Assembly: GCA_035623825.1 (NCBI GenBank)
Contig: DASPSR010000012.1
Coordinates: 1-22,516 of the forward strand
Reading direction: 5' to 3'
Origin: Nitrospirota bacterium
GTDB taxonomy: Bacteria; Nitrospirota; UBA9217
DNA length: 22,516 bases
This document shows, one piece after another, positions 715 to 20,188 of the stretch (positions are counted from its first letter, which is position 1; each line of letters starts with the position of its first letter). The translations under genes were made by a program, and so were the position numbers. Below the pieces are notes generated by a model. It was given only the letters and a program-made list of their open reading frames with translations. It was not told where the DNA came from and ran no database searches.

Positions 715-742
715 TTTAGAATCCTCCAAATTGATGCTTGAG

Positions 743-822
743 CTCCGGCAGCCCGGCCGTCCCGCTTTCGGGACCCGTTGGCTTTGTGTCCCCGCCTTGC
801 GACGGGTTTACTCTTTTCGGAG
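743..822 (-). ncRNA. GEMM-I (c-di-GMP-I class) riboswitch, A20 variant predicted to sense 3',3'-cyclic AMP-GMP
   Basis: Transcript CUCCGAAAAGAGUAAACCCGUCGCAAGGCGGGGACACAAAGCCAACGGGUCCCGAAAGCGGGACGGCCGGGCUGCCGGAG. P1 is CUCCG/CGGAG; P2 has the AAA/GAC internal loop and a GCAA (GNRA) tetraloop; then the CAAAGCC junction, P3 and the 3' UGCCG. Ends 28 nt upstream of the omcS-like ATG. Confidence 0.93.
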
Positions 823-1004
823 GATAGAGTGTGTCGGCTTGGCCGACATGAGTACAACGTGCTTCTTGCTGCTTACTACTGCCCACTTTTTTTATTCTAT
901 TCCGGCTTTCACCTCCTCCATTACGAATGCTCCTTTCATGTGTTTCTCAGTTCAGTCTATTCCTGTAATTTTGTGGTGATACATTATTTTATATTACTAT
1001 AGTA

Positions 1005-1020
1005 TGCATTCTTCATACCA
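1005..1020 (-). promoter_or_regulatory. Candidate sigma54 (-24/-12) promoter of the omcS-like gene
   Basis: Minus strand TGGTATGAAGAATGCA has exact GG-N10-GC spacing and resembles the TGGCAC-N5-TTGC consensus; predicted start site near 994. Confidence 0.7.
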
Positions 1021-1038
1021 TAATAATAAGTCTTGTAA

Positions 1039-1051
1039 AATCAGTGTGTTA
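1039..1051. promoter_or_regulatory. Candidate IHF binding site
   Basis: AATCAGTGTGTTA matches WATCAR-N4-TTR in AT-rich DNA, about 50 bp upstream of the predicted sigma54 start site. Confidence 0.55.
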
Positions 1052-1083
1052 ATTATTTTAATGCGTTAAAACTTAGAAAAACA

Positions 1084-1119
1084 TGGGCAAATAGGCCATA
1101 TAAATAGGCGATATGACCA
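1084..1119. promoter_or_regulatory. Candidate tandem enhancer (bEBP) sites
   Basis: Two similar imperfect palindromes, TGGGCAAATAGGCCA (1084-1098) and TAGGCGATATGACCA (1105-1119), 21 bp apart, about -90 to -125 from the predicted start site. Confidence 0.4.
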
Positions 1120-1713
1120 AAAGTATTATAGAATTTATCAGTATAGAGTTTATGTTAATTATCAGATAGATATAGAATTTCAATGAAAAGTTACAGAAAA
1201 GGCGCACGCTGAGAAGAGTTAGACTTAAATCTTCGAGTCAATTACCGGGATATAACAAGTCAACTAATAAGCTTCTTTATTTGCTGCTGGGTATATTCTT
1301 TCCGCAGCAACGGCAACAGAACGTTTTTTTTGCAAGTAGAATGATGAGAGGAAAGACGAGTCTAAAATAGGTGATTGCAGTAGAAGACGAACTGGAACGG
1401 TACATCTGTCATGTTCAATTTATTTTTCAACTTGCCATTAGACCACACCGTCCATGAAGAGTTAATCGCCCGGAAGGCGATGACTTTCACGAGGGAGCTA
1501 CCCCCTTTCATCAAGAACAGCTTGCCACATCATCTTTTAGCTTCATCAGGAAACGCTTTAGACCATGGCTAGACAAGCATTGGTTAATCTATTTGCTCTT
1601 TGTGTGGCAACATTTGTGCGGATGGGTCAAGGAGCGCATCGAAGGCCTAACTGCGGATCTTGGCTTTTGCGAATATGTATTAAGAAACAATTTCTTCAGG
1701 TGAAGCACTCAGG

Positions 1714-18763: not shown

Positions 18764-19732
18764 TTAATTATCCAATATAAGTCGTTGAGACCAGTCGAGC
18801 AATAAGATGGCCTTCTGACGCAGTTCTGTCTCCTCGGTCCGCTCCAAGATGTGCAAAGCCAGCTCCTTTATATGGGCAGCTGCACGTGACTTAAGGGCCA
18901 TTGTAGCAACAGGACTCTTGGGAAAGAGATGGCCGCACGCCTCGGCGAAGATTTCCTCATCCATGGCATCTGCAAGTTCGAGGACCCATTCGCACGCCAT
19001 TTCCGGACGTGGCGAGGGATTTTTTTGCAGAAGCATTTCCACTTTTTTCAATGCATCCCGAACCTTGACCTGCATGCCGGCGAGTTTGTTAATCGTGCTC
19101 TTAGGCACATCCTTTTCATGCAGCTTATTCCGAAAAAAAGCAAGCAGATTAGCCAGGTTTCCTTCATTCAACGAACGATTGAGCCAAAACCCCATTTCCT
19201 CAGGGACTCCTTCGGTCGCATGTGCTAAATTAAGATAAAATTCAGAGGTTCGAGTCCTGAGTCCAATTGCCCTTTCTATGGCTTCCTGAAGCAGGTCCTT
19301 CGACCCTGTCCGGGGAAGCTTGGCATTTTCCAGCCAGTATTGGTAAAGGTTTGCCAAAGCCTCCAGAAGGCTCTTCGACTCAGGGACTTTGGGTATGTAA
19401 CTGCTGGCCCCTAGCGCATATGCATCGTTAATGATACTTTCGTTGTCCTTGTTTGAAAGCACAATGACCGGTGTCATGCGCCAAACGGGGTTCGTCTTTA
19501 CCTCGCGAATAACATCCAGTCCGGTCCCATCGCGAAGTTGCATGTCCGAGATTATCAGGCTCAAGGGTTCCTTTTTTTGCTCTCGCTCGTTAAGCACGTC
19601 AACCGCCGCGCTCACGGATTCCGCAGTGATTATGTCACCGTGAAAGCCAAAATGGTCGAATGCCGTTTTTACCAGTTGGGAAAGAAGAGTATCATCCTCT
19701 ACATGCAGGATCGTCGGGTCCCTTTTGTCCAT
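18764..19732 (-). CDS. Response regulator: receiver domain plus helical C-terminal domain
   Basis: HVEDD, IISDMQL (phosphoacceptor Asp), VIVLS and YIPK receiver motifs; GGGAGGT SD before ATG 19732. Confidence 0.88.
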   Translation of the reverse strand: MDKRDPTILHVEDDTLLSQLVKTAFDHFGFHGDIITAESVSAAVDVLNEREQKKEPLSLIISDMQLRDGTGLDVIREVKTNPVWRMTPVIVLSNKDNESIINDAYALGASSYIPKVPESKSLLEALANLYQYWLENAKLPRTGSKDLLQEAIERAIGLRTRTSEFYLNLAHATEGVPEEMGFWLNRSLNEGNLANLLAFFRNKLHEKDVPKSTINKLAGMQVKVRDALKKVEMLLQKNPSPRPEMACEWVLELADAMDEEIFAEACGHLFPKSPVATMALKSRAAAHIKELALHILERTEETELRQKAILLLDWSQRLILDN

Positions 19733-20188
19733 GTTCGTTGGCACCTCCCTCAATCTCGCATTATCCAGCGAGCACGGGGAAAAGTATTTTATGTCTATAG
19801 GATTACTGAATTACCCAATGATTTTACACTTTTTATTATTATAACTATATTTTCGGGTTCTTGCATGTTTCTCGCGGTCTCGATCAGTTCTTGGAACTGG
19901 GGGTACGCCTAATCGGACTCTCGAATCACCGTCTCTGGACATAATACTTTACATTTTTTAACTTTCCGATGGCTGAGAATCCAGCGGTCTAGATGCTGTC
20001 ATCCGGTTTTGCCTGGGCGCGCAGCACTTATCCATAGGGGCGATTTAGCTCTTTCGGATACCCGTGGTGCATAATACGTGGCGCTGAATTCGGCGGACCG
20101 ATCATGTCTAGATCTACATAGAGATATCATTATCTTCTAGGTATGAATGTCTCATTTAATCCTGAAAGAGGCTTCCTGGACGATTCTC

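Follow-up and report, generated by a model that had tools for sequence, protein, structure and literature searches.

An A20 GEMM-I riboswitch upstream of an OmcS-family cytochrome gene in Nitrospirota: a probable 3',3'-cGAMP sensor with predicted translational ON control

The window considered here is a stretch of 22,516 nucleotides from an uncultured Nitrospirota bacterium (GenBank assembly GCA_035623825.1, contig DASPSR010000012.1; C26:1-22516 of genome G000 in the present analysis). On its minus strand, at 822..743, lies a riboswitch aptamer of the GEMM-I type, directly followed by the 5' part of a gene for an OmcS-family multihaem cytochrome. The aptamer carries an adenine where Vc2, the archetype of the class from Vibrio cholerae, has G20, the base that reads one nucleobase of the bound cyclic dinucleotide. 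Taken as a whole, the evidence makes it probable that this A20 aptamer has 3',3'-cGAMP (cyclic GMP-AMP) as its most likely ligand and exerts translational ON control over the cytochrome gene.

An A20 GEMM-I aptamer

The stretch 822..743 is a genuine GEMM-I cyclic-dinucleotide aptamer. The sole Rfam cmscan match in the 22.5-kb window is RF03167 (c-di-GMP-I-GGC), at 821..743 on the minus strand (61.1 bits, E 1.9e-12, gathering score 59). A search of the whole genome with RF01051 gives 63.6 bits to 822..744 on the same strand, where the gathering score is 35. The comparison with the Rfam models for cyclic di-GMP (c-di-GMP) riboswitches of type I that the original prediction had proposed therefore yields matches above both cut-offs. 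The fold was assessed on a MAFFT alignment (A1) of 28 aptamers, of which this genome contributes 18 and related loci 10. In the Rfam-derived structure of 22 pairs, 88.6% of cells are paired, compared with 76.3% in shuffles, and changes on both sides are seen in 14 of the 22 pairs, a level that none of 500 shuffles reaches. Covariation over these aptamers supports two hairpin arms closed by P1, and a near-identical relative (locus L020) has A-U in place of the window pair G803-C794. With its GCAA tetraloop and its second arm with two bulged adenines, the window aptamer is of the receptor-less GEMM type, which was reported in 2007 (PMC1950547; here and below, statements from cited papers refer to the accessible portions of those sources).

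The identity of position 20 depends on the register of the junction J1/2, which reads A817 A816 A815 A814 G813 A812, then G811 U810 and AAA (809-807), letter for letter as originally described. In the cmscan alignment, A812 stands under the consensus G of the model, directly 5' of the two-pair helix, and the posterior is maximal ('*') throughout J1/2. This register is not arbitrary, since the pairs 21-46 and 22-45 covary fully over the 28 aptamers (GC:14/CG:14 and CG:16/UA:9/UG:2/other:1). If the 3' partners are shifted by 1-3 columns, the proportion of paired cells falls from 88.6% to 31-46%, and there is no alternative register with G at position 20 unless both 811-786 and 810-787 are broken. 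The cmscan alignment and covariation thus bear out what had been claimed of this position: A20 at 812, its register, and the pairs G21-C46 and U22-A45 that fix it. An alignment placing G at position 20, which the original prediction named as grounds for abandoning it, was not obtained.

The other elements of the binding site are also in place, as the AAA linker (A785-A783), the intercalating A47 and the C92-equivalent C748 are all present in the cmscan alignment. Judged by its sequence, the pocket A20/A47/C92 has the make-up of the GEMM-Ib subclass, which binds 3',3'-cGAMP. In this subclass, A14/A20 is the pairing partner of the adenine in cGAMP (PMC6140456). The coordinates of the aptamer and of the other features discussed below are collected in Table 1.

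Table 1. Features of the riboswitch, its leader and gene, and related loci elsewhere. Positions are those of the window unless a contig is named.
Feature	Position	Strand	Basis
GEMM-I (c-di-GMP-I clan) aptamer, GYRA-tetraloop form with two bulged A	743..822	-	RF03167, RF01051, covariation over 28 aptamers
P1 5' strand CUCCG, pairs with CGGAG 747-743	818..822	-	Sequence and constrained fold
A at Vc2 G20 equivalent, base reading the alpha nucleobase of the ligand	812	-	cmscan alignment; column 11 of alignment A1
G21 (811) and U22 (810), pairing with C46 (786) and A45 (787)	810..811	-	Pair counts, 28 aptamers
Hairpin of 6 pairs (806-801 with 791-796), GCAA tetraloop 800-797	791..806	-	All 6 pairs change on both sides, 28 aptamers
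A45 (787), C46 (786), A47 (785); A47 is the intercalating adenine	785..787	-	cmscan alignment
Second hairpin arm, A783-U750 through G769-C764, bulged A779 and A778	750..783	-	Rfam consensus structure mapped on window
C equivalent to Vc2 C92, Watson-Crick partner of the ligand guanine	748	-	cmscan alignment
Anti-Shine-Dalgarno stretch AUCCUCCGAA, overlaps P1 5' strand	816..825	-	Minimum-free-energy folds pair 825-816 with 730-721
Shine-Dalgarno region UUUGGAGGAU, GGAGGA at 727-722	721..730	-	Masked in ligand-free fold
5' part of OmcS-family multihaem cytochrome gene, AUG 714-712, 238 codons, cut by contig end	1..714	-	phmmer vs PDB 6EF8
GC-rich hairpin, 7 nt upstream of anti-Shine-Dalgarno stretch	832..848	-	Folds
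Leader stretch identical in one peat metatranscriptome contig	759..917	-	Run X1, record 7
OmcS loci L239, L240 of genome G017, both at contig ends	C75:36266-36532, C113:8416-8688		
GAF-GGDEF candidate	G000 C13:236907-238040 (L067:504-1637)		Best PDB match 6D9M, G. metallireducens GacA Hypr domain fusion, E 1.4e-30

A cytochrome gene behind a predicted translational switch

The OmcS-like gene begins 29 nt downstream of the aptamer. Its product matches PDB 6EF8, the OmcS of Geobacter sulfurreducens, in a phmmer search (E 1.2e-43), with residues 27-238 aligned on chain residues 1-227, that is, from the mature N terminus. This upholds the earlier claim that the aptamer directly precedes an OmcS-type 'nanowire' gene. 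As in OmcS itself, the haem motifs are kept, with three CXXCH in the available 238 residues, and so is the histidine at mature position 16, which we take to be an inter-subunit ligand. The likeness to OmcS is known here from a gene fragment, the window copy differing in being 238 residues long and cut by the contig end. A full-length relative at locus L020 (76% identity, 417 residues) has six CXXCH, and another OmcS-like gene lies downstream of it. A second copy of the leader and gene start is found at the edge of contig C61 in the same genome. The closest OmcS loci come from Nitrospirota metagenome-assembled genomes (69-76% identity), while matches in Geobacter reach only 38-41%. The Geobacter-like organism implied by the original prediction is therefore not the host.

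The predicted mechanism is a competition for one short segment of the leader. Without ligand, AUCCUCCGAA (825-816) would pair with UUUGGAGGAU (730-721) and bury the ribosome-binding site. With ligand bound, the aptamer would keep CUCCG (822-818) in P1 with CGGAG (747-743). Formation of P1 would free the Shine-Dalgarno sequence and so turn ON translation of the OmcS-family hexahaem cytochrome. Because bases 822-818 are common to both helices, P1 and the helix between the anti-Shine-Dalgarno and Shine-Dalgarno stretches are mutually exclusive. The masked state is the ligand-free minimum-free-energy fold (-44.9 kcal/mol), in which Shine-Dalgarno bases 727-722 have a P(unpaired) of 0.044 or less, and the aptamer/P1 state (-41.4 kcal/mol) lies 3.5 kcal/mol above it, in energies that leave out tertiary contacts and co-transcriptional kinetics. 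This gap would be small next to the energy of nanomolar ligand binding. The fold of the whole leader has a z of -2.94. Transcriptional attenuation at the window copy was also considered, and was dropped because there is no terminator-like site within 600-1800.

The same arrangement recurs in front of related genes. Of 47 OmcS-homologue loci, for each of which 1.5 kb was fetched and GEMM-I judged at the gathering score, 19 have an aptamer that ends 20-77 nt before the start codon, within 50 nt in 18 of these. One locus (L025) has a tandem terminator-type aptamer pair, and 27 have no GEMM-I at the gathering score within the 1.5 kb. When the two leaders of this genome are added to the 19, the P1 5' strand and its upstream bases form their best duplex with the Shine-Dalgarno purine run in all 21. 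Contiguous pairs number 6-11 in 19 of the 21; locus L027 has 5+4, and the leader of L059 is cut short by the choice of start codon. The flanks of this duplex covary (AUCC/GGAU, CUCC/GGAG, GUCC/GGAC, CAUCC/GGAUG). The loci are labelled Nitrospirota, Acidobacteriota, Thermodesulfobacteriota, Desulfurivibrionaceae, Desulfobulbaceae, Schekmanbacteria, Syntrophorhabdales and 'delta proteobacteria'.

The match might instead be a by-product of a strong GGAGG site next to P1, with control being transcriptional or through RNA stability. Any Shine-Dalgarno sequence pairs with CCUCC-rich segments, and the shuffle control, in which no more than 12 of 300 shuffles reach the same stability for 17 of the 21 leaders, is weak for the remaining four (21-44 of 300). 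In RNA contigs, which cannot rank depth, the coding part is also covered more deeply than the leader. However, the pairing exceeds the GGAGG core, with flanks that covary in several phyla, and in 18 of 19 related loci the distance from the end of the aptamer to the start codon stays within 20-50 nt. No terminator is present here, though most of the 14 other-subtype aptamers of this genome precede a hairpin and U-run. A by-product is accordingly very unlikely. The two helices, their mutual exclusion and their conservation point to a switch that acts on translation, for which ON logic is predicted.

The ligand and its possible source

Two readings compete with cGAMP recognition by the aptamer. 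Among the 19 GEMM-I aptamers of this genome, eight have A20 (on contigs C26, C61, C31, C27, C53, C9, C20 and C15) and 11 have G20; for the C14 and C20 copies, position 20 was assigned by visual inspection and from alignment A1. Behind the A20 copies lie the two OmcS genes, together with genes for a di-haem oxidoreductase, a sedolisin-type peptidase, secreted CarboxypepD_reg proteins and Big_2 proteins. Those behind the G20 copies include PilZ, Usp, DUF7151 and metallo-beta-lactamase genes. That A20 copies stand beside G20 copies on other genes suggests that two signals are told apart, and two specificity classes seem to be kept side by side in this genome, as they are in Geobacter. Three other A20 copies of the genome have the terminator-competing P1 layout that is expected of ON switches. 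In 26 related genomes, 100 aptamers taken from the best-scoring matches listed (51 further matches lie outside this sample) were aligned to model R1; 30 have A20, 70 have G20, and all 100 have A47.

A second A20 subtype (..CUCAGAGCAAAC..), in which P1 is set against an intrinsic terminator, is found at C31:3353-3442, C27:55399-55488 and C53:24696-24831 of genome G000. It precedes genes for the di-haem oxidoreductase, the sedolisin-like peptidase and CarboxypepD_reg proteins, and also occurs in other families of the phylum (genomes G029, G031, G038 and G039).

Published work on Geobacter gives these observations a functional context. The A20 aptamers of Geobacter are mostly selective for cGAMP (PMC6456294; PMC8835794), and in a gacA mutant of G. 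sulfurreducens the expression of all GEMM-Ib-controlled genes is lowered, that of omcST 2-3 fold (PMC6456294). A20 makes cGAMP binding likely but is not enough for selectivity, as the base alone can yield a bispecific RNA. We therefore infer that the ligand is most likely 3',3'-cGAMP, recognised either selectively or jointly with c-di-GMP, as by the Geobacter omcST leader.

Candidates for a cGAMP synthase exist. The genome, which is 89.65% complete, encodes 17 GGDEF domains, with Asp in 13, Asn in one and Ser in three at the position of GacA residue 348. The search for a Hypr GGDEF protein that had been suggested thus turned up three candidates of the Ser348 type, none of them canonical, as their motifs are GGEEF or GGDDF. 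The GAF-GGDEF protein encoded on contig C13 has the Hypr domain of G. metallireducens GacA (6D9M) as its best PDB match, GHLEGS falling on GHLVGS (Ser348) and NYR on NYR (Tyr304, a number counted back from Ser348). With this tyrosine, the C13 protein has a non-Arg residue at the cross-dimer position, as expected of a Hypr enzyme. It differs from GacA, a Rec-GAF-GGDEF protein, in its GGEEF motif, in a two-residue insertion between the serine and this motif, and in lacking a Rec domain. Its architecture is that of GacB from M. xanthus, a cAMP-activated Hypr enzyme (bioRxiv 10.1101/600031). Orthologues of the C13 protein (65-87% identity) occur in 23 of 24 same-family genomes, and none of the 24 sequences of the family departs from NYR, GH[LM]EGS and GGEEF. 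The other two candidates are proteins with a transmembrane segment, a HAMP domain, a GGDDF motif and Ser (C27, C35); a further protein of this kind has Asn (C17). By description only, the C27 and C35 proteins can be likened to GSU1937, a HAMP-GGDDF protein reported, from reporter activity, to be a second source of cGAMP in G. sulfurreducens (PMC8835794). Production of cGAMP in this organism would thus fall to non-canonical Ser-type GGDEF proteins.

One of the two competing readings is suggested by the Rfam label. RF03167 is the family that cmscan reports, above its gathering score, and the aptamer might accordingly belong to the c-di-GMP-I-GGC variant class, for which a ligand is not established, and sense neither cGAMP nor c-di-GMP. 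The consensus of RF03167 has G at positions 20 and 47 (..AAAGGC..; model GACGCGAA), and 'GGC' in the family name presumably refers to this consensus line. The window (GACACAAA) has A at both positions (812 and 785) and so does not bear the variant signature, in spite of its score. RF03167 is the best model by E-value, reported after clan competition, but RF01051 scores slightly higher in bits and far exceeds its own cut-off. The RF03167 label is also given to ordinary G20/A47 aptamers of related loci, with up to 71.4 bits, which indicates that it mirrors overall sequence likeness rather than a variant pocket. Membership in the variant class is extremely unlikely.

A more substantial alternative, which is possible though on present evidence unlikely, is that the switch and its ON mechanism are as described, with c-di-GMP as the physiological ligand; A20 would then merely loosen specificity, and little or no cGAMP would be made. 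Several findings weigh against cGAMP as the signal, and many of them favour this alternative. The Vc2 G20A mutant binds both ligands, a protonated adenine still allowing it to hold c-di-GMP, and bispecific A20 aptamers of the GEMM-Ib type also occur naturally (PMC6140456). Position 20 has been called 'a selectivity factor rather than a hard filter' (PMC9262584), and the omcST riboswitch of G. sulfurreducens is reported to respond to cGAMP and c-di-GMP alike (PMC6456294). The difference between G20 and A20 is a single transition, which could be near-neutral if the RNA is bispecific. OmcS-type leaders are evenly split, with A20 in 12 of 24 and G20 in 12 of 24. A genome of the same genus (L021/L242) has an OmcS leader with G20, and in genome G017 two OmcS paralogues with near-identical N termini have one A20 leader and one G20 leader. 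Machinery for c-di-GMP is abundant, comprising the 17 GGDEF domains (13 with Asp348), seven HD-GYP domains and 11 G20 riboswitches. That the folding energies of the switch leave out tertiary contacts and co-transcriptional kinetics is a further limit on the favoured reading.

The evidence for cGAMP metabolism is also incomplete. No canonical Hypr enzyme (Rec-type GacA with Ser348 and GGDEF) was found among the 17 GGDEF domains of this 89.65%-complete genome. The cGAMP-type motif RxxQ/N is present in none of the seven HD-GYP domains detected by Pfam search (five RxxK/R, one RxxY, one RxxH, at an inferred motif position), and a search of the genome for SMODS/CD-NTase domains gave no matches. Ser348 with GGEEF, the combination in the C13 protein, is inactive in mutants, and natural enzymes with Ser/Thr348 are stated to be exclusively GGDE[F/Y] under the 'Goldilocks' model (PMC6456294), which would make the combination inactive and absent in nature. 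By this rule, the C13 protein is either an exception or no cyclase. The HAMP proteins likewise have GGDDF, not GGDE[F/Y]. Across 41 genomes, the co-occurrence of A20 aptamers and Ser-type GGDEF proteins shows no clean pattern in the sampled aptamers and the part of the GGDEF genes that was covered. Genome G015 has a Ser/GGEEF orthologue and G027 a Ser-GGDDF protein, each without a GEMM-I match, while G029 and G038 have A20 aptamers and best HAMP-GGDDF-like matches that carry Asp (their other GGDEF genes lie outside this count).

What speaks against c-di-GMP as the sole physiological ligand is that A20 is not an isolated change. It recurs in three sequence subtypes in this genome (8 of 19) and in 30 of 100 aptamers of relatives, and it does so beside G20 copies on other genes. 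The Ser-type GGDEF candidates are conserved, and Geobacter offers the precedent of A20 aptamers that are mostly cGAMP-selective (PMC6456294; PMC8835794). The reading of the window element as an A20 switch that responds to cGAMP is therefore preferred. The original prediction of cGAMP signalling coupled to electron transfer is upheld in part: an A20 GEMM-I aptamer does precede an OmcS homologue, in a genome with eight A20 and 11 G20 copies, but no canonical GacA was found in this 89.65%-complete genome. A broader proposal is doubtful. Under it, Nitrospirota, and perhaps further phyla that share the OmcS leader, would run a Hypr-type cGAMP pathway through the conserved Ser348/GGEEF GAF-GGDEF protein, and OmcS paralogues would be split between c-di-GMP and cGAMP control by the G20/A20 change in an otherwise identical switch that masks the Shine-Dalgarno sequence.

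Surroundings of the leader and relation to known systems

The coding part of the gene is found in contigs of three peat metatranscriptome runs at about 98.5% identity, and part of the leader is identical in one of them. Strand and ends cannot be read from these RNA contigs, which may also reflect DNA carry-over. They establish only that the leader and gene, or those of a close strain, are present in RNA libraries. A joint in one RNA contig (714->804) was rejected as a feature of this locus, as its 21-letter side probably comes from another organism or a paralogue. A promoter at 1052..1023 was likewise set aside; the site is consensus-like but not above chance (three found vs 2.2 expected), and cover by RNA contigs, whose absence above 940 carries no weight in itself, does not reach it.

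Further elements flank the aptamer. A GC-rich hairpin stands 6-10 nt upstream of the anti-Shine-Dalgarno stretch in about half of the OmcS leaders (L020, L022, L026, L028, L036, L040, L051, L239 and L241), with stems that differ (GUCGGC/GCCGAC, GCCGGC/GCCGGC, CUGCCGG/CCGGCAG), and may serve as a 5' clamp or stabiliser. About 90 nt upstream of the aptamer, a purine-rich box (AAGGAGGUGAAAGCCGGAAUAGAAUAAAAAAAAGUGGGCAGUAGUAAGCAG; window 892-921 up to about 950, minus strand) is conserved in five related leaders. It holds an SD-like (Shine-Dalgarno-like) GGAGG and GCCGGA, which matches the P1 3' strand letter for letter. A leader peptide at this site (a nine-codon mini-ORF, or short open reading frame, at 921-892, with AAGGAG 8 nt upstream) was rejected, the AUG not being conserved in four related leaders. 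No other RNA families were found in an E-value search of 650-1750.

An AT-rich stretch of about 760 bp (window 950-1713), without counterpart in relatives, separates the conserved leader from an upstream beta-barrel-like open reading frame. In the relatives, this upstream place is taken by an NHL-like gene that has a G20 riboswitch of its own, and the AT-rich stretch may be an insertion or rearrangement. There is no electron-transfer theme among the window genes at 1714-22516. One of the genes in the window (18767-19753, minus strand) encodes a 329-residue protein with an N-terminal receiver domain and a C-terminal part of about 200 residues without a Pfam match. OmcS-like genes repeatedly lie at contig breaks (window position 1, C61 position 1 and the two G017 loci), which is consistent with several near-identical paralogues per genome.

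The closest known systems are the GEMM-Ib riboswitches of Geobacter (Gs1761 before pgcA, and the omcST leader). They share with the window element the GEMM-I fold, A20, A47 and C92, an OmcS-family cytochrome downstream, ON logic (predicted here) and the presence of G20 aptamers in the same genome. The window element differs in its Nitrospirota host, in an OmcS homologue that is only 38-41% identical, in its U-A pair at 22-45, and in a platform that masks the Shine-Dalgarno sequence and has no terminator, in a genome where no canonical GacA was found. With Vc2, it shares the three-helix junction, the AAA linker, the two-pair helix 21-22/45-46, A18-G19 before position 20 and an action on translation, reported for Vc2 (PMC9262584) and predicted here. 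In contrast to the window element, with A20 and predicted ON control, Vc2 has G20 and is described as a translational OFF switch.

The link between A20 and cGAMP has been known since 2015. A GEMM element before omcS in Geobacter has been known since 2007 (PMC1950547). The principle is therefore not new. A literature search found no paper joining OmcS, a riboswitch and Nitrospir*, and none linking a cGAMP riboswitch or Hypr enzyme with Nitrospir*. What the locus adds is reach, as it extends this regulatory principle to uncultured Nitrospirota of peat-type habitats. It also adds a compact switch, predicted to act on translation, that is met repeatedly upstream of OmcS homologues in Nitrospirota, Acidobacteriota, Desulfobulbales-type lineages, Schekmanbacteria and Syntrophorhabdales. 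To this come the A/G polymorphism at position 20 and, in the conserved Ser348/GGEEF enzyme, a challenge to a published rule. If the A20 copies are bispecific, the locus would simply add another leader of the c-di-GMP family to those in front of cytochrome genes. If the Ser348/GGEEF enzyme makes cGAMP, the current rule for Hypr GGDEF activity would have to be revised. If the A20 copies read cGAMP, both cGAMP signalling and its link to extracellular electron transfer would extend far beyond the Deltaproteobacteria, in which they were defined.

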